IMG/VR virus record: IMGVR_UViG_3300028392_000054
Location: 1 to 64,000 of that record
DNA: 64,000 nt
From: a virus
Direction: 5' to 3' (one strand)
In this document: positions 1-11,748 of the stretch, piece after piece
Layout of the letters: each line of letters begins with the position of its first letter
Numbering within the stretch: the stretch's first letter is position 1
Program-made: the position numbers and the translations under genes
Notes under the pieces: generated by a model
Seen by the model: the letters and a program-made list of their open reading frames with translations, nothing else
What the model was told of the DNA's origin: nothing
Database searches by the model: none

Positions 1-861
1 AACAACTGGAACGTCAGATTAGAGGATTTGACTATGCCAGAGGGTTACCGCAACACCTCAGAGAACCAACTCGTAGTTCGTGACAACCCTTTTGATTCTG
101 GGGTAGATGTTCTCTCGGTTGTGGGTTCTCGTTACAAGGTAGTTCAGAACGAGGAACTATTCGCTTTTGGTGACGGTATCCTTGACGGTGGCGCAACTTG
201 GGAATCAGCCGGCTCTATCAAGGGCGGTAAGGTTGTCTTTGGTTCGCTAGTTGTTCCTCGTGAGTTCATCATTGACCCAGAGGGCGCAAACGACAAGACC
301 GTAACTTACTTGCTCGTTCACACCTCGCATGACGGTTCAACAGCAGTTCAGGCTAACATTACACCTGTAAGAGTTGTTTGCCAGAACACGCTAAACATGG
401 CAATCAAGGATTCTAAGCAGAGTTTCAAGATTCGCCACACCGCAACCGTCGGTGGCAGAATTGACGAGGCTCGTCGTGTTCTTGGTCTTACTTTTGACCA
501 CATGGACAACTTTGAAATCATGGCAAAAGCGCTTTACGAAACTGCCATGACAGACCAACAGTTCAACGACATCATCAAAGCCACTTATGCAGAGCCAGAA
601 AATGGCTCGGCTAAGGTTGCGCAAACTCGTTGGAACGATAAGGTTGACCTGCTAAACAATCTGTGGGAAAACTCACCTACCAACGCTACAATCAAGAACA
701 CCGCTTGGGGCGCTCTAAACACCATGACCGAACGCATTGACTACTTTAGAACAGGTAGAAAAGGTGGCGAGGCTATGATTGGAGCCGCCTCTGGATTTGA
801 CCCAGTTGTCAATGCCGAAAAGGCTCGCATACTAGGCGCAATCATGGAGTTCGCCAAGTAA
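1..861 (+). CDS. DUF932 family phage/plasmid-like protein (5' truncated by window)
   Basis: VGSRYKVVQNEELF, WESAGSIKGGKVVF, SHDGS, TPVRVVCQNTL and RHT motifs typical of DUF932; frame open from base 1. Confidence 0.85.
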   Translation, partial: NNWNVRLEDLTMPEGYRNTSENQLVVRDNPFDSGVDVLSVVGSRYKVVQNEELFAFGDGILDGGATWESAGSIKGGKVVFGSLVVPREFIIDPEGANDKTVTYLLVHTSHDGSTAVQANITPVRVVCQNTLNMAIKDSKQSFKIRHTATVGGRIDEARRVLGLTFDHMDNFEIMAKALYETAMTDQQFNDIIKATYAEPENGSAKVAQTRWNDKVDLLNNLWENSPTNATIKNTAWGALNTMTERIDYFRTGRKGGEAMIGAASGFDPVVNAEKARILGAIMEFAK

Positions 862-874
862 CACCAAATAAGTT

Positions 875-910
875 AGATAAGCCCTCTGCCAATCGGCAGG
901 GGGCTTATCT
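875..910 (+). terminator. GC-rich hairpin after DUF932, first element of repeated module copy 1
   Basis: AGATAAGCCCTCTGCC-aatc-GGCAGGGGGCTTATCT followed by GCTTT. Confidence 0.65.
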
Positions 911-913
911 GCT

Positions 914-990
914 TTGTTAGGTTGGTAACCTATTGCCTATGCCCGCTTGCGAAAAAGGCATATATAGGCAATAGGTTACCAACCCAACAA
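914..990. repeat. 27-bp-arm inverted repeat, copy 1
   Basis: TTGTTAGGTTGGTAACCTATTGCCTAT (914-940) / ATAGGCAATAGGTTACCAACCCAACAA (964-990), one mismatch. Confidence 0.95.
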
Positions 991-1026
991 GCCTATTACC
1001 ACAGTTTCTAATCCGACACGCCGTTC

Positions 1027-1115
1027 GTTACCTAATCGTTATGAGAGATTTATAACAGTATCGTTATGACTAAAATGCCTAAAATCCTATTTAGAGAGAG
1101 AGAAACCTATAAACT
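1027..1115 (+). promoter_or_regulatory. Putative early promoter 1: phased GTTAC/GTTAT boxes, (AG)5, -10 TAAACT
   Basis: GTTAC 1027, GTTAT 1038; ATAAC 1052, GTTAT 1063; (AG)5 1093-1102; TAAACT 1110-1115; -35 poor. Confidence 0.6.
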
Positions 1116-1123
1116 GTAACTAC

Positions 1124-1723
1124 ATGGAAATACACAACCAAACAGAAAGCGAGATTACCATGTTAGAGAACCAAGAGAACAACCAAGAACCAGAACTGAC
1201 CGTTGAGCAGAAGTTAGAGCAGATTGTATGTATGCCTCGTAACTTGCTTGAGGTATCAGATGTAACAGTAAAGCCAATCCTAGACATTTTAGGGCTGGAA
1301 GTAAGAGGTGTCGGTTTCTATTCAGAACCAACAGCCGAGCAGGTCACAATCCGTCAGGAACTCGTAAAACTAAACAAGTTAGTTGTAAATACTGAAACAA
1401 CAAGCGAACAGCGTTGGAACGATTTGAGGGATTTTCGTAGCAGGGTTGATAAGTTAGAGGAATACCTTGACGAGAACTGGGACAGCATTGACGAGGAAGT
1501 TCGTGACTTTTTGTGCGAAACTTTCAAAATTGACCAAGAAGTCACCAAAACCGTAAATGTCACAATCACAGGTTCATTAGACATAACAGCACCAAGAGGT
1601 TATGACTGGGACAACATTGAGGAGGACATTGAGATTGACGGTTCTGTTCGTATCACCAACTCTGACCTTGACGAAAGCGGTTACGGTTTCAGCGTTGACG
1701 ACACCGAAGTAGAAGTTGATTAG
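1124..1723 (+). CDS. Acidic hypothetical early protein (start may be ATG 1160)
   Basis: 199 aa ORF, very Asp/Glu-rich; SD-like GAAAG before 1160. Confidence 0.75.
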   Translation: MEIHNQTESEITMLENQENNQEPELTVEQKLEQIVCMPRNLLEVSDVTVKPILDILGLEVRGVGFYSEPTAEQVTIRQELVKLNKLVVNTETTSEQRWNDLRDFRSRVDKLEEYLDENWDSIDEEVRDFLCETFKIDQEVTKTVNVTITGSLDITAPRGYDWDNIEEDIEIDGSVRITNSDLDESGYGFSVDDTEVEVD

Positions 1724-1736
1724 AACTAAATAAACT

Positions 1737-1770
1737 TGTTAGGGGCTAGTTTCTAGGCTAGCCCCTAACA
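1737..1770. terminator. Hairpin after the acidic ORF
   Basis: TGTTAGGGGCTAG / CTAGCCCCTAACA 13-bp stem; ends resemble those of the large inverted repeat. Confidence 0.55.
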
Positions 1771-1795
1771 TACCAAGCCAGATTGGTTCTCTGGC

Positions 1796-1843
1796 GATAA
1801 GCCCACCAGTTATTTTCTTCCAAAGGTCGCTGGTGGGCTTATC
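1796..1843 (+). terminator. Hairpin, first element of module copy 2
   Basis: GATAAGCCCACCAG ... CTGGTGGGCTTATC followed by TATTTT. Confidence 0.6.
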
Positions 1844-1847
1844 TATT

Positions 1848-1922
1848 TTGTTAGGTTGGTTGCTTTGTTGCCTACCTGCGTTATTAGCAGATAGATAGGC
1901 AACAAAGCAACCAACCTAACAA
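1848..1922. repeat. 27-bp-arm inverted repeat, copy 2
   Basis: TTGTTAGGTTGGTTGCTTTGTTGCCTA (1848-1874) / TAGGCAACAAAGCAACCAACCTAACAA (1896-1922), perfect. Confidence 0.95.
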
Positions 1923-1931
1923 GTTTGTGCT

Positions 1932-2006
1932 GTTACATAATCGTGACCTAATCGTTACCTGTTCGTTACCATGTATCTTGCGTAAGAGAGAGAGTAGGTA
2001 TAAACT
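1932..2006 (+). promoter_or_regulatory. Putative early promoter 2: four phased GTNAC boxes, then TTGCGT-17-TAAACT
   Basis: GTTAC 1932, GTGAC 1943, GTTAC 1954, GTTAC 1965; -35 at 1978-1983; (AG)5 1985-1994; -10 at 2001-2006. Confidence 0.75.
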
Positions 2007-2035
2007 GAATACACAATCACAGAAAGGATTGAGAG

Positions 2036-2305
2036 ATGAAAGTCAAAGACCTAATCGCCGAATTACTAAAGCGTAATTCGTTAGAAGATGAAGTAGTAGT
2101 AGCCTATTACGATAGTGGTTATTGTATAGACGAAATACAGATGACAGCCCCAGCCAGAGAGATTATGGAACAGGCTTGGAAAGAGATTGCTGATGAGGCA
2201 CAAGAGATAGTTGAGGGTCACCTTGAGTTCACACAGACAGGTTACGAGATTAGTGACATGTTTGAGGAAAAGATAACAGAACTATTACAGAAAGAGGAAA
2301 ACTAA
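2036..2305 (+). CDS. Acidic hypothetical protein
   Basis: SD GAAAGGA; MKVKDLIAEL N-terminus common in small phage proteins. Confidence 0.8.
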   Translation: MKVKDLIAELLKRNSLEDEVVVAYYDSGYCIDEIQMTAPAREIMEQAWKEIADEAQEIVEGHLEFTQTGYEISDMFEEKITELLQKEEN

Positions 2306-2430
2306 TGTACGAAAATGTATTAGGAGAACAATTTGAGTTCTATTGCGAGGTATGTGGTAACTATGCCCATGAGGTATGTGACTGCTGTACCGAGTGTTTA
2401 GAAGTTGCTGACCTATGTGAGTGTAACTAA
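2305..2430 (+). CDS. 41-aa Cys-rich micro-protein (not in ORF track)
   Basis: MYENVLGEQFEFYCEVCGNYAHEVCDCCTECLEVADLCECN; TAATG coupling at both ends; GAGG SD. Confidence 0.75.
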   Translation: MYENVLGEQFEFYCEVCGNYAHEVCDCCTECLEVADLCECN

Positions 2431-2615
2431 TGCCTAAATACAGCGTGCCGATTACCTTTTGGGGAACTATTGAGGCTGAGAGTGCCGAACAAGCATGGCA
2501 GATAGTATCTGACGGACTATCTATAAAATGTGGTGTATTTGAGAATACTATGGTAGCAATAGGTATGACCGATACTGAACACCTACACGACGAGGTAGAG
2601 GAACTAGATGAATAA
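2430..2615 (+). CDS. Small acidic hypothetical protein
   Basis: Coupled start; IEAESAEQAW motif typical of small phage proteins. Confidence 0.75.
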   Translation: MPKYSVPITFWGTIEAESAEQAWQIVSDGLSIKCGVFENTMVAIGMTDTEHLHDEVEELDE

Positions 2616-2696
2616 CTATCTAATAACCCTGCTAAGCCGAATTATTATCCAACTATCCGTATTACACGCCAAACTTATTATGAAAGGTAAAAAATA

Positions 2697-3050
2697 ATGG
2701 CTCTATTAGAAATGCCTGTCATTGACAGAGAAACAATGTCGTCTGACCAAATCCACGCTATCTACCAGCAATACTGGCATGATAGACAACTACAAAGCGG
2801 AAATAACCTATTGTTTATGAAAGACAGAATAAAGCAGTTAGGTTATACATCTATGGCTGACTTCCGTAGGCAGAACCCTCGCCTTGTAGTTACTGCTGGA
2901 ACTATAACTAACTACTTTAGAGGCTATAGCACAATGTCGCCCCACACCGTAGTAGAGTTATCCTATGCTTTACGCATGACCCCAAATACATTTCTGTCCA
3001 TAATGGGTTACTACGACCCTAAGAAACAGACGATAGTAGAGGTAATCTAA
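2697..3050 (+). CDS. XRE/Cro-type HTH protein
   Basis: LGYTSMADF...TITNYFRG...LSYALRMTPNTFL pattern; SD GAAAGG. Confidence 0.65.
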   Translation: MALLEMPVIDRETMSSDQIHAIYQQYWHDRQLQSGNNLLFMKDRIKQLGYTSMADFRRQNPRLVVTAGTITNYFRGYSTMSPHTVVELSYALRMTPNTFLSIMGYYDPKKQTIVEVI

Positions 3051-3208
3051 TGAGTTCTCATGGAACCGATTGCTTATGCGTATTCTGTGGGACATTGTGC
3101 GAAATCTGCCTTCAGCCGTATCCTAGTGCTTGTTCCTGTCCCAATGAGGAAGATTGTAAGGTATGTAATGACCCTGATAGCGTAGAGGACTGTATCTACC
3201 ACCCATAA
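3050..3208 (+). CDS. 52-aa micro-protein with 10 Cys (not in ORF track)
   Basis: MSSHGTDCLCVFCGTLCEICLQPYPSACSCPNEEDCKVCNDPDSVEDCIYHP; TAATG coupling; GAGG SD. Confidence 0.7.
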   Translation: MSSHGTDCLCVFCGTLCEICLQPYPSACSCPNEEDCKVCNDPDSVEDCIYHP

Positions 3209-3272
3209 ATGTCGTGTAACGCTCATTACACGCTGGAATAGGCTTTTTCCACCTTTCTGTGCCTATTCCACC

Positions 3273-3305
3273 AACCCCCAGCCACATCTCTCTTGGCTGG
3301 GGGTT
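3273..3305 (+). terminator. Hairpin, first element of module copy 3
   Basis: AACCCCCAGCCA / TGGCTGGGGGTT stem followed by TT. Confidence 0.65.
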
Positions 3306-3319
3306 TTGGCTTATCAAGA

Positions 3320-3401
3320 TTGTTAGGTTGGAAGCCTTTAGCCTTAGCCGAGCCGAAGGGTGAAACGGGCTAAATAAGGCTAAAGGCTTCCAACCTAACA
3401 A
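3320..3401. repeat. 27-bp-arm inverted repeat, copy 3
   Basis: TTGTTAGGTTGGAAGCCTTTAGCCTTA (3320-3346) / TAAGGCTAAAGGCTTCCAACCTAACAA (3375-3401), perfect. Confidence 0.95.
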
Positions 3402-3405
3402 GATT

Positions 3406-3526
3406 GTTATGAAATCGTTACCATTTCGTTACCAAAGCCTATTGACTAATAGAGAGAGAGGTGCTATGTATGCGATTATAACGATTTGGTAACAACCAGC
3501 ATAGAGAGAGAGAAATAGTGTAGGCT
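3406..3526 (+). promoter_or_regulatory. Putative tandem promoters with phased boxes and (AG)5 spacers
   Basis: GTTAT 3406, GTTAC 3417, GTTAC 3428; TTGACT 3442 -17- TATGTA 3465 with (AG)5 3451-3460; ATAAC 3478/GTAAC 3489, (AG)5 3503-3512, TAGGCT 3521. Confidence 0.55.
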
Positions 3527-3898
3527 ACGCCCACCGTTTCGGCTACTGCCTAATAAGCCTATCAAGCGTGCAGGGATACGCCCAGATTGTAGGTTGTTTT
3601 ACTGGTTTTGTGTATCTGATGTATGTGTGAGAGAGAGAGAGAGGGCAGAGGCACGCAGTTACGCTACATCTAACTTATTACTCTCTATGTATTGTTCTCT
3701 CTCTTAGAGGTAGAAACAAAGAAATAAGCAAAGCCCCGATTTTCTTGTCGGGGGGTGGGTTCGCAGGTGACCAAAATCAAATGTTACAATAAGGTAACAA
3801 ATACGGAAATGCTGTATCCGATTGTCACCACTAGGGCTTAGACTACTTATACGAGGTCAGAGAGGCTGACCTCACTAAATCAGAAAGTATCAAATCTT

Positions 3899-5284
3899 AT
3901 GAGTATCGCCCTTTTAGTATCAACTGAAATGAAAGACGGTAAAGAACAGACCCTACTTGTTCCTACCGATAATGAAGTCCTAATGTTCCACCGTCTATCT
4001 ACTGGTGGTCGTGGTCGTGGTCAGGCATGGAACAAGGTCACAGATGTAACAACCTTGCCACAGACCCCAGCAACTAATAAGCCTGTCGCAGTTGCTATCA
4101 ACAGCACAGATGTATTTAACGCCAAGTTCGGAAATGTAACAGCCCTATCTAGTCGCCTTACTACCCTTGACGGTGAGTATCACTATGACGAGAGCAAGCG
4201 TATCTCACATCAGGCTTGGGTTACTGATTTGACCGAAAGGCTTATTGCTGGCGAGAGCAACTTGGCTCTCTATGTTCAGGACAAGCGTAGGCAATCCCCA
4301 GTAGTTATCAAGCCTATTACAGCAACAGAACCAGAGCCAGAATTGGAAATGGCTTTCGTGGCTATCAACAGCACAATCAACGAGCCTTTTAGTAATGTCG
4401 TGGCTATGCCACGCCCACAAGTCCAGACCGAAATGGCAACCGTTCCAGATAAGTCATGGGCTAACCGTTACCTCAACCGTAAAAATGTTAATAAGTCTGG
4501 TAAGACCGATTACGAAATGCTAGACATCATCAAGGCTAACAATCAGAACCTACTAATCAGAGGTCACGCTGGGTCAGGTAAGACCATGTGTGTTATCGCT
4601 TGGGCAGGTTCTAGGGAATACCGTTACTACAACATCTCTAGCAACATTGGGCTAGAGCCGAGCCACCTATTCGGTATGTGGATTCCGACAGAACAGGCTG
4701 GCGTATTTAAGTGGCAAGACGGTCCTGTAACAGACTTGGTAAGACATGGTGGCGTGCTGTTGCTCAATGAAATTGACTTCATGCCAGAACGCATTACAAC
4801 AGTTTTATTTGGCTTGCTAGATGATAGACGAGAAATCCAGTTGCTAGAAAATGGTGGCGAGGTAATCAAGGCTCACCCTGACCTAGTTGTAATCGGTGAC
4901 CACAACCCGAACTATCGTGGCTCTCGCCCTATGAACCAAGCGTGGAAAGACCGTTTTGCTCACAAGTGGGATTTTGAGTATGACAAGGCTATTGAGAAAA
5001 AACTTATTGGTAACACAACCCTATTAGAAGTGGCTAATCAGTTGCGAGAACAGCATGAACGAGGCGAGATTGACACGCCTATCTCTACCAGAGGTCTTGA
5101 GGCTTTCGTCAAGAACACTCACAATGTCAATCTTGATTACGCTGTTATTACTTATCTAAATAGTTTTGCTGATGATGAACGAGAGGCTGTCAAATTGGTA
5201 TTTGATACTGCTAAGGCTGGTATCGCTACTGGGTTTGGTATCGCTGTTGATGTAGAACTACAACTAGACGAGGTGGCTAACTAA
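3899..5284 (+). CDS. MoxR/CobS-like AAA+ ATPase with N-terminal extension
   Basis: Walker A GHAGSGKT, W.DGP, Walker B LLLNEID, AHPDL, NP.YRG.RPMNQAWKDRF, ISTRGL. Confidence 0.9.
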   Translation: MSIALLVSTEMKDGKEQTLLVPTDNEVLMFHRLSTGGRGRGQAWNKVTDVTTLPQTPATNKPVAVAINSTDVFNAKFGNVTALSSRLTTLDGEYHYDESKRISHQAWVTDLTERLIAGESNLALYVQDKRRQSPVVIKPITATEPEPELEMAFVAINSTINEPFSNVVAMPRPQVQTEMATVPDKSWANRYLNRKNVNKSGKTDYEMLDIIKANNQNLLIRGHAGSGKTMCVIAWAGSREYRYYNISSNIGLEPSHLFGMWIPTEQAGVFKWQDGPVTDLVRHGGVLLLNEIDFMPERITTVLFGLLDDRREIQLLENGGEVIKAHPDLVVIGDHNPNYRGSRPMNQAWKDRFAHKWDFEYDKAIEKKLIGNTTLLEVANQLREQHERGEIDTPISTRGLEAFVKNTHNVNLDYAVITYLNSFADDEREAVKLVFDTAKAGIATGFGIAVDVELQLDEVAN

Positions 5285-7377
5285 TGGCTAAGCCTAAAGT
5301 AAGTAGAGTTAGCGTTGATTCCACCCCTATCGGTAAGACATGGTGGGAGTGGCTTGCCGAGCAAGGCGAATCAGATTCCAGCATTTACAATAGCAAGGTA
5401 GATGTAGCCAAAGAAGTAAAAGCAACTGGTAAGACAGAGGCAGAAGTTATCATGCGTAGAAATACCTTGAGGGCAGAATTAGAAAACGAGTATGACTTTT
5501 ACATTGACAACGAAAGGTCTAAGATTGGTAGCGTGTTCCAAATGCGTAACAACACACTTGATAGCGTTGTTTCAGTTTATCAGCGTGCCGACAGGATTCT
5601 TACTGGTCTTAATGTTCTGGTATCCATAAGTGAAAATGAGGTAGCCCCTGCTTACAATGACGGTAAAGACATTGTATTTAGTGGAAAACTAATTAAAGAC
5701 CTTGACGAAAATACAGTATTGTCTTTACAAGGTCTTAATTACCATGAACTTGGTCACCTGCTATTCACGCCAAGAATCGGCACAGCGTTAGGCAAGTGGG
5801 TCATTGAGAAAGGTCTAAAGACTAAACAGACTAGTTATGACTACATGGATAGTGACGGTAAGGTTCAGACACACACTCGGTCATACTCAACAGAGGAACT
5901 GGTAGAACCTGCTCGCAACATGGCGTTTAACATCTTAGAGGATTGCCGAGCCGAGTATTACCTAACGCTTAAGTATCCTAGTATCAGACCTTTCATGGTA
6001 ACCCTATTAGGTGATTACATACTTGATAATAAGTTAGATAAGTTAGGCGAACAGTTTATCCTGCTCGCTGGTCGCAAGTATTTCTCGCTTGAGTTACGCA
6101 AGATGTCTGCCCAGATGTTCATAGCCGAGCATGGCTTAGACAAGGCTAAGGCTCTCTACGACATTTTGACCGAGTATCGCACTCTCGTATTCCCTCGCCA
6201 GTATGACAGGGCTAAAGAACTGATTACAGAGTTCATAGCCCTACTACCTAAAGACGACAATGGCAATCCAAAGCCAGTAGGTCAGAACCCTAATGGCTGT
6301 ATCCATAGAGAACCTATGCGAAATGGCAGACCTACTACCGAGAAAGAACAAGAGGCTCTCGCTGGCAACGCTGGCACAGGTAAAGACCCTCTCGGTGATG
6401 AACTCGGCAAAGGGCTTACTGCTGGCAAAGGTAAGTTTGAGGAAACTGGTGAGATTAATTCCGAAACTGCTGGTTTTAATACCAAAGACGAGGAAGTAAT
6501 TAGGGAATTACAAGAGGTCGTTCAGCGTGCTAAGGCTGATAAGTCTTTACAGAAAAAGGTTAGTGACACGCTTAAGGCTATTCAGAAAGACCGTAGTAGC
6601 AAATCTATCCTAGAGAAAACTAGGGCTGGCAATTACACGCCAGAGATGTCAGAGGTTACTGCTAGTCGCTTGTTCGCACAAGAACTAGAACTGCTAAGAA
6701 TAGAAAGTGACCCTGCTTGGAACAGAGAAAAGCCAAGTGGCAAGTTAAATGTCAAGCGTGCCATGAACGCAGACATTAACAGGATAGATACGCTATTTGA
6801 CCGTTGGCAAGAGGGTAATGATGATTACGACATTGAGGCTAGTATCCTGATTGACAGGTCTGGCTCTATGTATTCCGAGATTGGTTCTGCTTGTCGGTCT
6901 GCTTGGGTAATCAAGCGTGCCATAGAACGAATCAACGGTAAAGTATCTGTATCTGTATTCAGCGATTACGGTAGGGAACTGTTTGACAGAGATACCCTTG
7001 CGAGTGCCACAGATGTTCGTATCGTAGAGGCTGGTGGCGGAACTGACCCTAGCCAATCCCTAGCCGAAACAGCAAGAATAATGGATAATACAACTGCTAA
7101 AACTAAATTAGTATTTATTCTTACTGACGGTGAGTGGTATAAACCTGCTGTTGCTGATAGCAAGATTGAGCAACTAATTAAACAAGGCTGTTATGTAAGC
7201 GTAGTCTGGCTTGGTAGCCATGAATACGCCAAGACTATTATGGCTAACCCTAAGCAAGTTATCCAATACACACATGGGGCTAACTCGTTCAGGACTATCC
7301 AGCAACCTAGCGAACTAGTTAAGGTCGCTAAAGATGTGGTTAAAGCACAGATGAACCGTAGCAAAGTCAGGGGTTAG
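5284..7377 (+). CDS. CobT-like VWA domain protein with N-terminal HExxH metallopeptidase-like domain
   Basis: YHELGH and FNILEDCRAE; MIDAS DRSGSM, GGT, LTDGE; coupled to the AAA gene. Confidence 0.88.
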   Translation: MAKPKVSRVSVDSTPIGKTWWEWLAEQGESDSSIYNSKVDVAKEVKATGKTEAEVIMRRNTLRAELENEYDFYIDNERSKIGSVFQMRNNTLDSVVSVYQRADRILTGLNVLVSISENEVAPAYNDGKDIVFSGKLIKDLDENTVLSLQGLNYHELGHLLFTPRIGTALGKWVIEKGLKTKQTSYDYMDSDGKVQTHTRSYSTEELVEPARNMAFNILEDCRAEYYLTLKYPSIRPFMVTLLGDYILDNKLDKLGEQFILLAGRKYFSLELRKMSAQMFIAEHGLDKAKALYDILTEYRTLVFPRQYDRAKELITEFIALLPKDDNGNPKPVGQNPNGCIHREPMRNGRPTTEKEQEALAGNAGTGKDPLGDELGKGLTAGKGKFEETGEINSETAGFNTKDEEVIRELQEVVQRAKADKSLQKKVSDTLKAIQKDRSSKSILEKTRAGNYTPEMSEVTASRLFAQELELLRIESDPAWNREKPSGKLNVKRAMNADINRIDTLFDRWQEGNDDYDIEASILIDRSGSMYSEIGSACRSAWVIKRAIERINGKVSVSVFSDYGRELFDRDTLASATDVRIVEAGGGTDPSQSLAETARIMDNTTAKTKLVFILTDGEWYKPAVADSKIEQLIKQGCYVSVVWLGSHEYAKTIMANPKQVIQYTHGANSFRTIQQPSELVKVAKDVVKAQMNRSKVRG

Positions 7378-7382
7378 GCACT

Positions 7383-7532
7383 ATGATAGAACCTATCCTC
7401 TATGGAGTTGTGTTACCGTTTGGATTGTTCGGGCTGGAAACAATAGTCTTAGCAATCTGGTTACACAGGACAACAGCACCAAAACCAAAACAAAATAAAC
7501 TAATTAAGAAAGGCAAGACAAATGGGCGATAG
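7383..7532 (+). CDS. Small single-TM protein (not in ORF track)
   Basis: MIEPILYGVVLPFGLFGLETIVLAIWLH followed by a basic tail. Confidence 0.5.
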   Translation: MIEPILYGVVLPFGLFGLETIVLAIWLHRTTAPKPKQNKLIKKGKTNGR

Positions 7533-7896
7533 AAGTTCTATCTACATTATCAGCAAGGGCTTACCAAAGCCGATACAGATTTACGGTCACTATGGGTATG
7601 ATGATAACGCCAGAGCCACAGCCATAGTTCTCAGCAACACCAAGAGGCTCGGTGACGCTTGGTATCTAACAGCACAATTGTTCTACCAGTTTGCAATCGT
7701 TCAGGGTGGCTATGTGGGTGTGGATAGTTTCGGTATCGGTTCTGTTGATACCCTTAGCAATTCTGACGAGAATCCACCTATCTATCTAAACGCCGATAAT
7801 GGTGAGGTTGAGTATGGTGGCATGGATTACACAAAGACAGAGTTCGTAGAGGAGTTTGGCAAGTTGGCTGGACTAGATTGGATAAGTAACACATGA
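7522..7896 (+). CDS. Hypothetical early protein
   Basis: SD GAAAGG; MGDRS..IYGHYG type of phage hypothetical. Confidence 0.8.
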   Translation: MGDRSSIYIISKGLPKPIQIYGHYGYDDNARATAIVLSNTKRLGDAWYLTAQLFYQFAIVQGGYVGVDSFGIGSVDTLSNSDENPPIYLNADNGEVEYGGMDYTKTEFVEEFGKLAGLDWISNT

Positions 7897-8087
7897 TTAC
7901 AATGAATAAAACAGCGTGGGTCGCTAGTGACGGTTCTTATGGGGCTGGCACAATAATCTTGTTTGACCCTAATGAACTCACAGATTTAGAGTGGGAGATT
8001 GTCGCAGAGGAAACGAGTGACATGGACAGGCTAGATGTAATAAAGCAAATACTAAATAATAAGAAAATAGGAGAAACAAATGATTAA
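7893..8087 (+). CDS. Hypothetical protein
   Basis: ATGA overlap, 64 aa. Confidence 0.7.
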   Translation: MITMNKTAWVASDGSYGAGTIILFDPNELTDLEWEIVAEETSDMDRLDVIKQILNNKKIGETND

Positions 8088-8319
8088 AACTAATAAGCAA
8101 GTAGAAACATCTTGGGCTTGGTTCGTAGCACGCTACAAGAAACTCGGCTACAAATCTCTCAACCAGTTCGCAATCGCAACAGGCTTTCAGAAGTCTAGCC
8201 TATCCAGATACTTTCACCTTGAGAGGCAGATACCTAGTGGCATGATGTCGGCTTTATGTAGCACGCTAAAGGTCAGCCCTAATACCCTGATGAAAGTCAT
8301 TGGCGAGGAGTGGAACTAA
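8080..8319 (+). CDS. XRE/Cro-type HTH protein
   Basis: LGYKSLNQFAIATGFQKSSLSRYF..ERQIP..LCSTLKVSPNTL; SD AGGAG. Confidence 0.8.
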   Translation: MIKTNKQVETSWAWFVARYKKLGYKSLNQFAIATGFQKSSLSRYFHLERQIPSGMMSALCSTLKVSPNTLMKVIGEEWN

Positions 8320-8510
8320 TGGAAACTTACAGCGTAATACTTACCAGCGACAGCACAACTTTCATCACGACCATAGACTATAAGTATGAGGGTGAGGAAG
8401 AACTAGACGAGGACAAGTTGTATGACTTGGCGATTGCTCGTATTAAAGACGAGGAAGGCATTGACCTTAGTAATAGACGGTTGGACTTTACATACGAGGA
8501 GATTAACTAA
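8319..8510 (+). CDS. Small acidic hypothetical protein
   Basis: TAATG-coupled start at 8319; SD GAGGAG. Confidence 0.7.
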   Translation: METYSVILTSDSTTFITTIDYKYEGEEELDEDKLYDLAIARIKDEEGIDLSNRRLDFTYEEIN

Positions 8511-8686
8511 TGGCTAGTGTGACCATAGAGGTTCGTCAGGTCTATAAAATTACAGTTACAGGTGACGAGTTCTGGGGTGATGTCTTAGACAAAGCCCTAA
8601 AGACTTATTACACAACTGGCGTAGAGATAGATGAAGTAACCCTATTAAGTGCTGATAACGAGTTTATTGAGAGTGAGGAGAACTAA
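8510..8686 (+). CDS. 58-aa acidic hypothetical protein (not in ORF track)
   Basis: MASVTIEVRQVYKITVTG...; TAATG coupling at both ends; GAGGAG SD. Confidence 0.7.
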   Translation: MASVTIEVRQVYKITVTGDEFWGDVLDKALKTYYTTGVEIDEVTLLSADNEFIESEEN

Positions 8687-8808
8687 TGAGCAACTGGGAA
8701 GTTAAAGACGACCAAGATGTTTCGTGGTGGCATTGTGGTCGCCCTGCCTATTGGGAAAATGATGATGTGTATTGTTCTAAATGCCAAGAAAAGTTAGAGG
8801 AGAATTAA
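8686..8808 (+). CDS. 40-aa Zn-ribbon-like micro-protein (not in ORF track)
   Basis: MSNWEVKDDQDVSWWHCGRPAYWENDDVYCSKCQEKLEEN; GAGGAG SD. Confidence 0.7.
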   Translation: MSNWEVKDDQDVSWWHCGRPAYWENDDVYCSKCQEKLEEN

Positions 8809-9042
8809 ATGTTTAACTATGACGGTTGGCTAGAAAGCCCATACACAGACGAGGGTATGGATTGTTCAGAGAGTTATTGCTCTCTATGCTGGACAGATTG
8901 CGAGGAGTGCGATACGCAAGGCGAACTAGACGGAGTGACTTGCCCTAAGTGTGAGGGCGAGGGGGCTTTTTATTACGACCAAGCCAGCGATTACGAACAC
9001 CGATACGAACATGACGCAAGCCAAACACCAGACGACAAATAA
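8809..9042 (+). CDS. Cys-rich protein with DnaJ-like CxxCxGxG Zn motifs
   Basis: CEECDTQG...CPKCEGEG. Confidence 0.7.
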   Translation: MFNYDGWLESPYTDEGMDCSESYCSLCWTDCEECDTQGELDGVTCPKCEGEGAFYYDQASDYEHRYEHDASQTPDDK

Positions 9043-9051
9043 GGAAAACAA

Positions 9052-9525
9052 ATGACAATACCCGAATTACAATTACTAATAAGCCTGATACCACTAGCCT
9101 ATGTCGGTGGTGCTATGATACCGATTTTTCACTCGGACTACACTCGTAATAAAGTTTCTAATAAGATAGTTGTGCCTTTAATGGTTCTGACCTTGTTGTG
9201 TTGGCTGACCTTAGCAATCTGGCAGGGCGAGTGGCTAAAGTTCGGTATCTCTATCCTATTCTTTATAGGAACTATCCTGTTTGGTTTCTTCATAAACATT
9301 AAGTATGACCTATTAGGTATGGGTGACATAAAACTATTAGCAATCTTGTCTATGATACTGTCGTGGTTTTCATGGGGAGTAGCCCTTGTATTCTTACCAG
9401 TAACAGCAGTTTTATCACTTGTAGTAGGGTTCTTTGTAGTAATGCTCTCTAACGCAAAAGACATGAGGTTATCACCAGTAGTCTTTATAGCCTTCGGATT
9501 CCTAATGGCAGTAGCCATGAATTAA
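9052..9525 (+). CDS. A24 family prepilin peptidase (short TadV/CpaA type)
   Basis: Multi-TM; first Asp in SDYTRNKVSN; GMGDIKL motif; C-terminal LSP. Confidence 0.8.
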   Translation: MTIPELQLLISLIPLAYVGGAMIPIFHSDYTRNKVSNKIVVPLMVLTLLCWLTLAIWQGEWLKFGISILFFIGTILFGFFINIKYDLLGMGDIKLLAILSMILSWFSWGVALVFLPVTAVLSLVVGFFVVMLSNAKDMRLSPVVFIAFGFLMAVAMN

Positions 9526-9628: not shown

Positions 9629-9713
9629 AGAGAGAGAGAGATTTAAATAGCAAAAAAGCCCATAACCGTATTTGGCTATGGGCTTTAATGAGAGAGAGAG
9701 AGAGAGAGAGAGA
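9629..9713. repeat. (AG)n microsatellites flanking the nrdJ terminator
   Basis: (AG)6 at 9629-9640 and (AG)11 at 9691-9712. Confidence 0.9.
9652..9686 (-). terminator. Terminator for nrdJ
   Basis: AAAAAAGCCCATA...TATGGGCTTT; U-tract on the - strand. Confidence 0.75.
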
Positions 9714-9714
9714 T

Positions 9715-11748
9715 TTACTGGTTGTCTTTAATTAGTTTTATTTCACAAGCGTCAGTAGTACAATAAGCCTCACCGATAGCCTCAATACCTAAGCCCTGAT
9801 ACACGCCAGCAAAGTCAATAGGGAATAGTTCCATAGCATACTGGTCGTATTCCGCTTGAGAGATTTGAGAGTAAGGCATTTGAGGATAGACATGGTTACC
9901 CATTGGCAAGAAAGAGATCGTTTTTAACTGACCGTCGTACATGTGGAGAACTGTACCTACATCTTTAATTTCTTTTTCAGCGTCAAAAGAGATAGTCACA
10001 GACACAGAGTTATCTGACCACCAGCGTTGAGCAGTCGCAGCGAGAGCAACCTTTTCGTAGATAGATACATCTTTTTCAGAACGCTTAGCAAGAGATTTAA
10101 TAGGGAAGAACACCACAGAAGTCTTAGTAGTGTTTTCACTAGCAGGTTCTACTCGGTAATTAGCCATTTTAAAGAGAGAGAGCATAGGGTCATCATTACC
10201 AAAGCGGATGGCACGCAAGAAGTATTCGCCGCCTGGGGTCCAATGTACGCCTGGACTTTCACCAGAGAGAATAGATACAGTACCAGAAGGCTTTATTGTA
10301 GTTGTTTTAATGCTTTCTCGTATTCCAAGCCACTCAGAATAGCTTTTATCGTAATTAACGATAGTCTTGTAGCCTTCATCCATCCACTCACGAAGCACTG
10401 GAAGCCCGTTGATGTCAGCGAAGTTAGCCACACCAGACATAGAAGTTCCAATGCGTCTGTTCCTTTGCATGATAGCGTTAGTTTCTTCCCAGTGAGTAGG
10501 CAAGAGTGTAACAGTCTTAGCATAGAGATAAGCAAACTTGAGAGTACGCTTGTAGTCCTCAAGAGATTCATGTCTATTTAGATAAGTTTCTACCAGAGTA
10601 CAGCACTCAAACGATTCGAGAGATTGCTCGGCACATGGGTTATAGCCCGCAGCACGCCAATCTTTATTGTTAGGTTGGTCGGCTAATCTACCATACTTAC
10701 GAGTTACATCCATCCAAATAACTCCAGGCTCACCATTGAGAGCGATACCATCTACAATTGCAGAGAGGTCTGTACCCACAGCGGTTTCTACAGAGTTATT
10801 AGACATCCAAGCCCAGCCTGGATTTTCTGGGTCATAAGAGTTACGTTCTGGGAAACGCTCAGCATTTTTGAGATTTAAGAAGTTATCGTCATCTATACGC
10901 CCAAGCAACAGCTCAGCAGAACGGCGAACGTTACCTGAAACTACGCAAACACCAATCATATTACCTATATCCGCAATATCAATTCGGGTTATCTTATTTC
11001 CAGCCCTACCAGCAAAGAGTTTTCTAATGTGCGTGTGCAATTTTAGAAGCGGTTCGTGTCCCGCAGCAGTTCCGCCGAAGGTAGCAATAGGTGCGCCAAA
11101 TGGTCTAATGCTGTCGTAATTAAATACCCAAGTAGGCTGGTCTGGCTTTAAATAAGCATTTATTAAAGCAACAGTACTATCTACCCAACCCTCTCGCGTG
11201 TCAGGGATATCGAACACTTGTTCGCCTTTTGGCTCATAGATGTCAAAGCCTTTATCAGCACCTTTGTCATCAAAGCCCACACCCACACCCAGCATCGAGG
11301 CTTCCATCAGGAACGCAAACGGCTTAGCAGGGTTGTTTTTAGACATTTCATTAGTAGAAACAAATGCGCAATTCTGCAAAGCAGCACTATTCTTTTGCTC
11401 ATTTACCAAAGGCGTACCCATTACCCAAAGACCTCGGCCAGGCGGAGTCCACTTGAGATTAAACAGGCGGTCAAACGCTTCTTTAGCGGAAGCCTGTGCC
11501 TTAGCGTCGTTCCAAGGCAAACGGTTAGTCTTAGCGTGGTCTTTCTGAAGCGAGTACATACCGTTGATGACACGCTCACATACATCAGTCCAAGTTTCTT
11601 TAGTACCGTCAGCCTTTAGGCGAGAGTAAGTACGAAGAAAGGTAATCTCTCCAACAGAGTTACCAGCAACATCTTTAAACCCCCAAGGTACTACTTTGTT
11701 CTTGTAGCCTTCTACGAAGTCGTTTGTTAATTTAAATGATAATGACAT
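9715..11748 (-). CDS. nrdJ: Class II adenosylcobalamin-dependent ribonucleoside-triphosphate reductase
   Basis: RTYSR, PPGRGLW, QNCAF, NVRRSA, NPCAEQ, TIKPSGTVS, C-terminal YCTTDAC; start placed at MSLSF after AGGAA SD. Confidence 0.95.
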   Translation of the reverse strand: MSLSFKLTNDFVEGYKNKVVPWGFKDVAGNSVGEITFLRTYSRLKADGTKETWTDVCERVINGMYSLQKDHAKTNRLPWNDAKAQASAKEAFDRLFNLKWTPPGRGLWVMGTPLVNEQKNSAALQNCAFVSTNEMSKNNPAKPFAFLMEASMLGVGVGFDDKGADKGFDIYEPKGEQVFDIPDTREGWVDSTVALINAYLKPDQPTWVFNYDSIRPFGAPIATFGGTAAGHEPLLKLHTHIRKLFAGRAGNKITRIDIADIGNMIGVCVVSGNVRRSAELLLGRIDDDNFLNLKNAERFPERNSYDPENPGWAWMSNNSVETAVGTDLSAIVDGIALNGEPGVIWMDVTRKYGRLADQPNNKDWRAAGYNPCAEQSLESFECCTLVETYLNRHESLEDYKRTLKFAYLYAKTVTLLPTHWEETNAIMQRNRRIGTSMSGVANFADINGLPVLREWMDEGYKTIVNYDKSYSEWLGIRESIKTTTIKPSGTVSILSGESPGVHWTPGGEYFLRAIRFGNDDPMLSLFKMANYRVEPASENTTKTSVVFFPIKSLAKRSEKDVSIYEKVALAATAQRWWSDNSVSVTISFDAEKEIKDVGTVLHMYDGQLKTISFLPMGNHVYPQMPYSQISQAEYDQYAMELFPIDFAGVYQGLGIEAIGEAYCTTDACEIKLIKDNQ

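Follow-up and report, generated by a model that had tools for sequence, protein, structure and literature searches.

Long palindromes with almost perfectly paired arms and conserved ends ("caps") stand at the junctions of early-gene units in a group of uncultured freshwater phages, and they are tentatively read here, at a probability of roughly 0.4, as DNA-level boundary elements in which copying from arm to arm would maintain the identity of the arms and the caps would serve as recombination seams. Lytic phages carry rapidly evolving genes against host defences in their early regions, and, to our knowledge, the wiring and exchange of such early anti-host genes have been detailed only for T4-type phages (PeSL cassettes). 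The capped palindrome has not been described previously: no Rfam family was matched at the gathering score (there were only sub-threshold, generic miRNA-precursor matches), and no match was found among GenBank phage records, which agrees with the initial annotation, in which it was not recognised as any described element. It would add a new part to the early arrays of abundant freshwater phages, namely, a long symmetric palindrome with common caps at the inspected junctions, and it raises the testable ideas that DNA secondary structure might be a regulatory or insulating device in phages, that recombination seams might measure only 12 bp, and that arm-to-arm homogenisation might mimic compensatory evolution.

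Capped palindromes of the window and their flanks

The window (the whole analysed stretch of 64,000 nt, positions 1 to 64,000 of IMG/VR record IMGVR_UViG_3300028392_000054) contains three capped palindromes, all of type A (as defined below), at 914-990, 1848-1922 and 3320-3401, exactly where they had been annotated, with arms of 27-30 bp and the ends TTGTTAGGTTGG/CCAACCTAACAA. The pattern TTGTTAGGTTGG-N40-70-CCAACCTAACAA is matched exactly at 1848-1922 and 3320-3401, and in 0/100 dinucleotide shuffles; the outer 12 bp is common to all three copies, as had been claimed, apart from one mismatch in the first (at cap position 6, where an A faces a C). The first copy has 27-bp arms around a 23-nt centre, the second has arms that are perfect over 27 bp around a 15-nt centre, and the third has perfect 27-bp arms around a 28-nt centre with an inner stem; as pairing in the second copy reaches 30 bp with one mismatch, the description of the arms as exactly 27 bp, accurate for the other two, is a little too strict. 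The DNA folds of the three (dG of -27 to -34 kcal/mol, z of -9.5 to -13) contain the second short stem that had been noticed in each loop. The interiors, reported as variable and fully complementary, are both, but they are not free, since each arm consists of two tandem 7-8-nt units with the loose consensus WWGCYTWT WGCYTA. A short hairpin, TTGTTAGGGGCTAG...CTAGCCCCTAACA (1736-1770), right after the stop of the 199-aa gene, has 8 nt in common with the cap. Because the contig begins inside the gene upstream of the first copy, more copies are probably missing.

Every copy fills the gap between an upstream intrinsic terminator and downstream boxes phased at 11 bp, with a putative promoter. On the upstream side (all of the flanking features being on the + strand), a terminator-like GC hairpin GATAAGCC...GGCTTATC (876-909) follows the DUF932 gene, whose stop is at 861, and precedes the first copy; a terminator-like hairpin GATAAGCCCACCAG...CTGGTGGGCTTATC (1796-1843) precedes the second; and an intrinsic terminator CCCCCAGCC...GGCTGGGGG-TTTT, then GGCTTATC (3275-3315), precedes the third. 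In G000, GGCTTATC (902-909, 1836-1843 and 3308-3315) does end 4 nt ahead of each arm, as had been stated, and the accompanying description of a GC hairpin followed by GGCTTATC applies to the third copy, where GGCTTATC comes after the terminator, whereas in the first and second it is itself the 3' half of the GATAAGCC...GGCTTATC hairpin.

Downstream, GTTAY boxes at 1027, 1038 and 1063 (1027-1067) lie ahead of the next putative promoter, four GTNAC boxes at 1932, 1943, 1954 and 1965 (1932-1969) repeat with an exact 11-bp period, and GTTAY boxes at 3406, 3417 and 3428 open a block (3406-3470) that also holds TTGACT (3442), (AG)5 (3451) and TATGTA (3465); the phasing that had been noticed is exact in the latter two series. 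The (AG)5 tract reported after each copy is likewise there (1093, 1985 and 3451), with all 17 of its overlapping matches in the genome on the + strand, and it is followed by TATAAACT after the first (1093-1115) and second (1985-2006) copies. The "-10 box" of the initial annotation is plausibly the putative TAAACT, seen at 1110-1115 before the 199-aa gene, where a promoter role would suit it; TTGACT-N17-TATGTA is present in the third copy only, and no -35 is clear in the first two, where phased boxes, (AG)5 and TAAACT are seen. An RNA contig of one relative (n = 1) starts at the equivalent of 1998. The 3/3 window copies and those in the inspected relatives have, upstream, a GC hairpin together with a T-run or GGCTTATC and, downstream, conserved promoter-like blocks, presumably active as promoters; in the relatives, the palindrome starts 0-6 nt past the terminator T-run, and the first phased box follows its end after 0-5 nt. 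The palindrome does not itself look like an intrinsic terminator: its stem is followed by GYYTRTTA or boxes instead of a T-run, and a separate terminator precedes it.

The family among relatives

The search for further copies in relatives, one contig of which is binned with a Rhodoluna MAG, yielded 74 distinct ones (42 of type A and 32 of type B). Capped palindromes occur at 11 of the 79 DUF932-anchored loci scanned, and all 10 cap pairs of the complete 87.3-kb genome G002 fall inside 37.3-46.3 kb. Their length is 62-97 bp, with stems of 22-42 bp and centres of 7-42 nt (median 22); centres of this size would make cruciform extrusion kinetically hard, which counts against the boundary-element reading.

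The cap is 12-13 bp long (TTGTT-N2-3-GTTGG) and common to the copies within one genome, its central bases being near-uniform inside a genome and different among lineages. It faces inward in type A and outward in type B, and the B copies all stand ahead of the A copies in 6/6 arrays with both types; in branched versions (cap, hairpin, hairpin, cap), the caps are still complementary. The spacing of type B caps lacks helical phasing (Rayleigh p 0.67), which argues against cooperative binding on linear DNA, and that of type A caps shows some (p 0.003), among copies that are not independent. At other places in the genomes, lone sites that resemble the cap are only ~3-fold more frequent than in a reversed-pattern control, and the conserved ones do not track the cap variant of the array, so that a cap-specific factor, such as the putative protein that the initial annotation deduced from the invariant ends, is not required by the data; concerted evolution would seem to fit such cap drift better than a changed protein specificity. 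The cap is also no host motif, since 13 of its 18 matches in the Rhodoluna-labelled MAG are on a phage-like contig and the other 5 compare with 8 control matches.

Near-identical cores (89-93%) are found in unrelated flanks in L114:11078/L012:1630 and L109:1020/L110:4327, and in core-sharing pairs, identity drops from 95-100% to ~45% within 20 nt of both palindrome ends. These are the two strong cases of this kind; the other 8, with core similarity scores of 0.56-0.68 (1 = identical), could be a reflection of the loose interior consensus. The order of cassette families differs among the arrays of relatives as well, and, as far as such comparisons of sequence go, the palindrome appears to mark the places where gene units are swapped. 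Among the roles originally offered for it, only that of a recombination site for the shuffling of early-gene cassettes has gained comparative support (reordered units and breaks at the palindrome ends). The phage has a RecA of its own, and 0/4 near-complete genomes (one 100% complete, G000 89%) contain Phage_integrase (PF00589; controls 14/14), Y1_Tnp (PF01797) or Resolvase. In a comparison with MITEs, the caps would be the inverted terminal repeats, and no target-site duplication is visible in the flanks examined.

Pairing symmetry, the preferred reading and its rivals

When the outermost 22 pairs are counted in all 74 copies (1628 pairs), 15 are non-Watson-Crick, and 14 of these fall in cap positions 1-9, where mismatches cluster at the variable position 6, and 59/74 copies are perfect throughout. 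Interior positions 13-22 are Watson-Crick in 739/740 cases, with 0 G.T, though 3-4 pair types occur per position; given this and the 4 G.T/T.G vs 6 A.C/C.A pairs in the caps, there is no RNA-type wobble. Such strict pairing was to speak for a DNA role according to the initial annotation, and the capped palindrome indeed seems to behave as DNA, not RNA. RNAalifold predicted 20 pairs for 39 type A copies, and both sides vary in 11 of these pairs, which is a caution for covariation-based RNA discovery: an element with perfect covariation and zero wobble can be a DNA palindrome, not an RNA. Furthermore, the centre is inverted between the orthologues L010:4572 and L012:4559, with their flanks conserved (the one clear inversion; a second is weak). 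Because wobble intermediates are absent and one loop is inverted, arm-to-arm copying at the DNA level is suggested, and the co-varying interiors, from which selection on a folded structure had been deduced, do not have that as their sole reading.

If the palindromes are boundary elements, the symmetry of their arms would be kept via hairpin/cruciform pairing or inter-arm recombination, not via stepwise compensatory RNA mutation, and the caps would be short homologies where general recombination, with the phage RecA and without a site-specific recombinase, exchanges cores and cassettes, gene conversion homogenising the central bases of the cap. We infer that they most likely function as boundary elements that form a structure ahead of each early promoter: cruciform extrusion might absorb transcription-driven supercoiling, or the caps and stem base might dock a phage factor, and in either case the early units would be insulated or timed, with the two cap orientations (B first, A next) possibly marking two classes of units. 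A more ambitious version, which we consider improbable, is that of a new cis-element acting as a DNA structure, a cruciform or hairpin whose base is encoded by sequence, in which the polarities from B to A would be read by a phage factor and which would both time or insulate early units and provide break-and-join points; with such points built in, a lytic phage could swap anti-host genes in the absence of a site-specific recombinase.

The same symmetry could belong to a selfish or neutral, REPIN-like palindrome that has spread at junctions by cap recombination and arm-to-arm conversion and has no role in expression, a doubtful possibility for which it can be said that cores move independently of both flanks, caps evolve in concert without any co-variation of the conserved lone sites, no cap-binding protein was found, and the interior drifts freely with its symmetry retained. 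Yet neither a RAYT/Y1 transposase nor another recombinase of the three families searched is there to mobilise it, target-site duplications are not seen, the caps have not spread across the putative host MAG, and the strict B-then-A order would be unexpected, as would the fixed place of the cap pair in every inspected junction, including three of L114 (5030-6935) without a long repeat. Long palindromes are also costly, viral ones having reportedly been found in a study (PMC11707656) to trigger DdmABC/Lamassu. As a perfect palindrome folds in read-through RNA too, an RNA element has to be considered, unlikely as we think it is: in read-through transcripts, the 27-bp stem would back up termination, protect the 3' end or form an RNase III-type site for processing, which would suit its place directly after a terminator, the lengthening of the U-rich tract by the TTGTT of the type A cap, its very stable folds and its stem length (stems of at least 22 bp suit RNase III). 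Against it stand, besides the missing wobble and Rfam family, a loop orientation that is not conserved, the lack of a U-tract after the stem and an identical cap duplex in both polarities (A and B); the RNase III-type stem and the small RNA family of the initial annotation are both disfavoured by the location after a terminator and upstream of the next unit's promoter, and by RNA contigs (assembled only) that do not cover the palindrome.

Integron-like attC sites, i.e., folded single-strand sites that let a site-specific recombinase move gene cassettes in and out, resemble the capped palindromes in providing a single structured repeat of comparable length (62-97 bp here), with conserved ends and a variable middle, per cassette. 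The attC core consensus is GTTRRRY/RYYYAAC, which we take to be fitted by the GTTAGGT/GTTGAGT and ACCTAAC contained in the AG and GA caps; this fit, however, is confined to those caps and fails in the AC, TGG and TGT lineages (TTGTTACGTTGG, TTGTTTGGGTTGG and TTGTTTGTGTTGG), extrahelical bases are lacking, Phage_integrase is missing from all four genomes, and every cassette carries a promoter and a terminator of its own, so we regard this origin as very improbable. An attC identity is largely refuted by the perfect pairing, the absence of IntI and the core consensus not being kept across lineages. It is just as hard to credit a hairpin promoter used during DNA entry or a single-strand initiation signal (an N4-type vRNAP promoter or a Frpo-type ssDNA promoter), for which the clustering in the early region beside the DUF932 gene would speak, a gene that lies within the terminal repeat in Streptomyces BE-cluster phages, where it is found at two places per record. 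The N4 hairpin promoter has a 5-7-bp stem and a 3-nt loop and is used by a virion RNA polymerase, and Frpo-type promoters belong to plasmid leading regions; the stems described here are far longer and contain no -35/-10 pair, and a giant virion RNA polymerase gene is lacking, no ORF exceeding 1091 aa. Both the conserved promoter-like blocks and the starts of the RNA contigs are downstream of the palindrome. The ssDNA or entry role suggested originally is thereby left without support from any of these features.

Likeness to known systems

The capped palindromes class with PeSL-like cassettes, as a variant. The promoter-early stem-loop (PeSL) regulatory cassettes of T4-type phages are reported (PMC2839356, PMC4122927) to be likewise repeated composites of terminator and promoter, set between early genes that are small and mostly unknown; at these composites, units are inserted, lost and reordered among relatives by general recombination functions only, with no dedicated recombinase. 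A PeSL, however, is described there as a sigma70-consensus promoter plus a single GC-rich stem-loop terminator. The family presented here, which belongs to another phage lineage, has a further part between terminator and promoter, a perfect palindrome of 62-97 bp with conserved caps, as well as two cap polarities, phased activator-type boxes and an (AG)n tract without a PeSL counterpart.

REP/BIME/REPIN elements are also intergenic palindromes with a conserved end tag, often located after genes and in alternating orientations, with ties to termination, supercoiling (gyrase binding) and recombination. REPs, however, are imperfect, measure 20-40 nt, carry a GTAG or CGTC tag and are mobilised by RAYTs to hundreds of chromosomal copies, whereas the capped palindromes have longer perfect stems and another cap, are limited to the phage early array and are not accompanied by Y1_Tnp, with no cap enrichment in the putative host MAG. 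The RNase III stems of T7, a lytic phage, are similarly long and separate early genes, but they form within a polycistronic RNA and are imperfect stems with internal loops, unlike the present ones, which follow a terminator, precede the next promoter and are free of wobble pairs. Control of transcription by an intergenic DNA cruciform, attenuated by HlyU, is reported for exsBA of Vibrio parahaemolyticus (bioRxiv 10.1101/2022.03.07.483294); there, too, inverted repeats adjoin a promoter, but at just one locus of the chromosome, whose regulator is known, as opposed to ~10 copies per phage genome and a cruciform that is hypothetical.

Capped palindromes of the early block and their relatives

The source record, held in IMG/VR as a linear sequence of 81,729 bp that is 89% complete, contributes its first 64 kb to the window. 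A + strand block at 1-9525 carries a DUF932 gene, small ORFs and the genes of a CobS-like AAA ATPase, a VWA protein and a prepilin-peptidase-like protein; the remainder of the genome (G000), nearly all of it on the - strand, encodes a class II ribonucleotide reductase, a DpdA-like transglycosylase, a family A DNA polymerase, RecA and Dam, among others. No close phage was found in GenBank, the best protein matches being to actinobacteriophages at 40-50% identity, and 20 public sequencing runs, mostly of freshwater metagenomes, contain part of the window.

Three long inverted repeats with shared ends ("caps") lie between the early gene units at 914-990, 1848-1922 and 3320-3401 (copies 1, 2 and 3). 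Copies 2 and 3 match TTGTTAGGTTGG-N40-70-CCAACCTAACAA exactly, a match seen in 0/100 dinucleotide-preserving shuffles, and copy 1 has a single mismatch in its cap. Arms of 27 bp, said in the initial annotation to be of exactly that length, are indeed present, only the exactness having to be given up, as copy 2 extends to 30 bp with one mismatch. As ssDNA, either strand of the copies folds at -27 to -34 kcal/mol (z from -9.5 to -13), and the second short stem proposed for each loop was recovered as short inner stems in the centres of these folds. The surrounding elements described at the outset were likewise found in place: GGCTTATC stands 4 nt ahead of every arm (exact in all three copies), the phased boxes recur as GTNAC with an exact 11-bp period (1932/1943/1954/1965 and 3406/3417/3428), and (AG)5 lies downstream of the palindromes at 1093, 1985 and 3451, between the phased boxes and a -10-like box. 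Genome-wide, tracts of (AG)5 or longer number 17 when overlaps are counted, every one of them on the + strand and in the early block, within the first 10.2 kb; long (AG)n runs among them lie at 3630-3643 and 9629-9712.

A search of the whole 81.7-kb record, whose contig starts inside the DUF932 gene preceding copy 1, returned no further full palindrome copies. A short hairpin not listed in the initial annotation (TTGTTAGGGGCTAG...CTAGCCCCTAACA, with 8 nt common to the cap) is seen at 1736-1770, directly after the stop of a 199-aa gene, and a similar one follows the homologous gene in a related locus, L004. The 500 nt of non-coding sequence before the CobS-like gene (3401-3899) exceed a single promoter in complexity: three tracts of (AG)n are found here, along with repeated pairs of boxes (3478/3489) and, at 3600-3660, a run rich in GT/GA.

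Relatives were gathered by cap-pattern scans of viral contigs and as DUF932-anchored loci, both searched with custom hairpin scripts. Long palindromes were present in 11 of the 79 DUF932 loci scanned and missing from 68 (L011, a duplicate of L004, being left out); ten of the eleven are the loci with a DUF932 identity of at least 69%, and the eleventh shows 57%. Four palindrome-less loci still yielded none when rescanned at a lower threshold. The promoters of these relatives are of the ordinary TTGaca/TATAAT type, with inverted pairs of the DnaA-box-like TTATCCACA in front. Such pairs occupy the equivalent place, before a canonical -35/-10, at L021:9710-9749, upstream of DUF932 in L027 and L036, and at L034:8150-8300. 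A tRNA-like sequence (noted by eye only) sits right after DUF932 in L021, L027 and L040, which is the place of palindrome 1 in G000. The DUF932 array of Streptomyces phage Yaboi has no long palindrome.

Once identical copies were removed, 74 palindromes remained, with stems of 22-42 bp (mode 27-29) and centres of 7-42 nt (median 22); chance matches amounted to about 10 pattern matches in viral contigs, with 12-17 paired bases. The same scan of bacterial and archaeal genome contigs gave 41 loci, nearly all with 12-17-bp stems (chance level), the only members on a real family contig being L147 and L150. Both fall on one 15.9-kb contig (C29 of G006) with at least five capped palindromes, assigned to a MAG that bears the label uncultured Rhodoluna sp., which is a weak hint at the host, or else a mis-binning; outside this phage-like contig the MAG shows no cap enrichment (5 matches vs. 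8 for the control). Unrelated bacterial genomes, of Bacteroidota and others, contain single long palindromes that have 23-38-bp stems and carry TTGTTTGGTTGG or TTGTTTAGTTGG at their ends (L126 and L139 in a Chitinophagales MAG, which form a small repeat family; L137 and L149 in Saprospiraceae MAGs; L117 in Acidaminobacter); these probably have no relation to the phage element.

Module anatomy and the two cap arrangements

Each module runs from a gene stop through a GC hairpin with a T-run or GATAAGCC...GGCTTATC, 0-6 nt, the palindrome, a further 0-5 nt, between two and four boxes with 11-bp phasing (CGTTACC, TTATAAC/TGATAAC or GTTCACCT, depending on the lineage), (AG)n, a TANNNT-like box and a leader of about 30-40 nt to the next start codon, an order that places the palindrome after the expected end of the upstream RNA and before the next promoter. 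Downstream of each palindrome in L004, L107, L110 and L094, 11-bp direct repeats GTTCACCTGTT, which resemble actinobacterial PHO boxes, stand instead of the CGTTACC boxes, hinting at phosphate-responsive early promoters in these phages.

The arm interior consists of two tandem 7-8-nt units of loose consensus, and the cap follows the pattern TTGTT-N2-3-GTTGG. Its centre is AG/GG in G000, L003-L005, L007-L009 and L097, GA in L010, L012, L014, L094 and L107-L114, AC in L013, TGG in L015-L020 and TGT in L034, and is nearly, not fully, uniform within a genome (exceptions include copy 1 of G000, L004, L101 and L107). In 42 copies (type A, caps pointing inward) the 5' arm begins TTGTT...GTTGG, and in 32 (type B, caps pointing outward) it begins CCAAC...AACAA. 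As a perfect palindrome is identical on both strands, B is not a flipped A; rather, the cap duplex stands the other way round with respect to the centre. Every B precedes every A in the sense direction in 6/6 distinct mixed arrays (L004, L010, L012, L014, L015-18 and L107/L114), and one gene family can follow A in one phage and B in another. The copies in the window are of type A only, the B part of G000 probably lying in the missing 11% of the genome.

Symmetric interiors and exchange at the caps

The co-varying interiors, from which selection on a folded structure had originally been deduced, proved to be real, yet the pattern of the covariation is unlike that of stepwise compensatory RNA evolution. 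Among the outer 22 pairs of the 74 copies, 15/1628 are non-Watson-Crick (cap positions 1-9 account for 14, of which four fall on position 6, a variable one), and at interior positions 13-22 Watson-Crick pairs make up 739/740, with no G.T, even though each position shows 3-4 pair types. Whole stems, ragged inner ends included, hold 62/2085 non-Watson-Crick pairs (sense strand: G.T/T.G 15, A.C/C.A 11), and RNAalifold, applied to 39 type A copies aligned with MAFFT (the three with 13-nt caps excluded), returned 20 pairs, 11 of which are changed on both sides. Covariation on this scale without wobble intermediates is the trace that arm-to-arm DNA copying would leave, not stepwise RNA compensation. 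Within conserved flanks, the centre of L010:4572 is inverted relative to that of its orthologue L012:4559 (similarity score -0.28 direct, 0.53 as reverse complement); a second inversion is weak, nine pairs keep their orientation and 56 are ambiguous.

Cores (interior plus centre, caps excluded) from 20 representative loci formed 19 pairs with a similarity score of at least 0.55 (1 = identical), whose flanks were related on neither side in 10 cases, upstream only in 4, downstream only in 1 and on both sides in 2, with 2 unjudged. Cores 89-93% alike reside in unrelated flanks in L114:11078 with L012:1630 and in L109:1020 with L110:4327, where a stretch of 20 nt at either end is enough for identity to drop from 95-100% to about 45%. 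The latter value is approximately the global-alignment level of unrelated sequences (an estimate, not a computed figure); in the computed control, the local scores of unrelated flanks were 10-20, close to those of random sequence (median 8, 95th percentile 10.5). For the eight weaker "neither flank" pairs, the loose interior consensus may be the cause. Gene content between the copies does vary among relatives, as had been suggested for checking, cassette families being reordered, duplicated or missing between arrays.

What is seen at the cassette junctions is a family of DNA-level palindromes with symmetric interiors and with shared caps at which exchange takes place. No site-specific recombinase accompanies it: four genomes, 89-100% complete, lack Phage_integrase, Y1_Tnp and Resolvase, all of which score in control genomes. 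A RecA gene is present, and exchange between cassettes might be of RecA type, with arms kept symmetric by arm-to-arm copying and caps presumably homogenised among the modules.

Putative function and the caps as possible protein sites

We would tentatively regard the palindromes (a probability of roughly 0.4) as structure-forming elements that lie ahead of each early promoter and act as a boundary or a docking site. That they constitute a selfish module seems rather doubtful, and an RNA stem is somewhat less plausible still, given the wobble-free pairing of the interiors. Rfam, a comparison with which had been advised, gave nothing at gathering score, only sub-threshold matches to generic miRNA precursors. 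Contigs of two metatranscriptome runs cover ORF pieces (1113-1273, 1457-1551, 2013-2226, 2452-2728 and 3028-3200) and none of the palindromes, although missing cover proves nothing and RNA libraries may contain DNA. One relative's RNA contig starts at the equivalent of 1998, just past (AG)5, which would put TATAAACT within the transcript, a contig end not being a 5' end. Reading the palindromes as attC sites was rejected on the sequences of the cap lineages, the lack of Phage_integrase in the four genomes and the 739/740 interior count, leaving it a very slim chance, and a hairpin promoter is just as improbable.

The literature searches turned up PeSLs, a Vibrio cruciform and Lamassu/DdmABC, and no account of a capped palindrome. 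PeSLs share the module logic (PMC2839356, PMC4122927), but lack three features of the present modules, namely a palindrome with caps, its two polarities and phased boxes.

Lone copies of TTGTTNNGTTGG number 2-7 per genome vs. 0-3 for the reversed control. Exact lone TTGTTAGGTTGG sites are located at 10667-10678 inside the ribonucleotide reductase gene (AGG in G000 and the relatives G002 and G003), at 57640-57651 inside a tail-region gene (AGG or AAG) and at genome positions 68254-68265, just upstream of another gene (AGG in G000, G001 and G004). The lone sites examined are orthologous and conserved, each retaining its own centre regardless of the array's cap. The three exact sites of G000 had looked far above chance, and co-evolution with a cap-specific protein was considered and dropped, since the centres ignore the array variant; gene conversion among the modules thus accounts for the genome-wide uniformity of array caps better than altered protein specificity does. 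The small early proteins had no match in Pfam and PHROGs and therefore offered no candidate for a cap-binding factor; HTH-like proteins of 117 and 79 aa are among the early proteins. Helical phasing of cap spacing gave a mixed picture, type B showing none (p 0.67) and type A a weak signal (p 0.003) from copies that are not independent.

DNA contigs of one run (X1) break at the palindromes, as is expected of short-word assembly. Three gaps of the L114 array without a long repeat, examined singly, hold a cap-hairpin-hairpin-cap arrangement or a bulged stem, and in these branched gaps the caps are still complementary.
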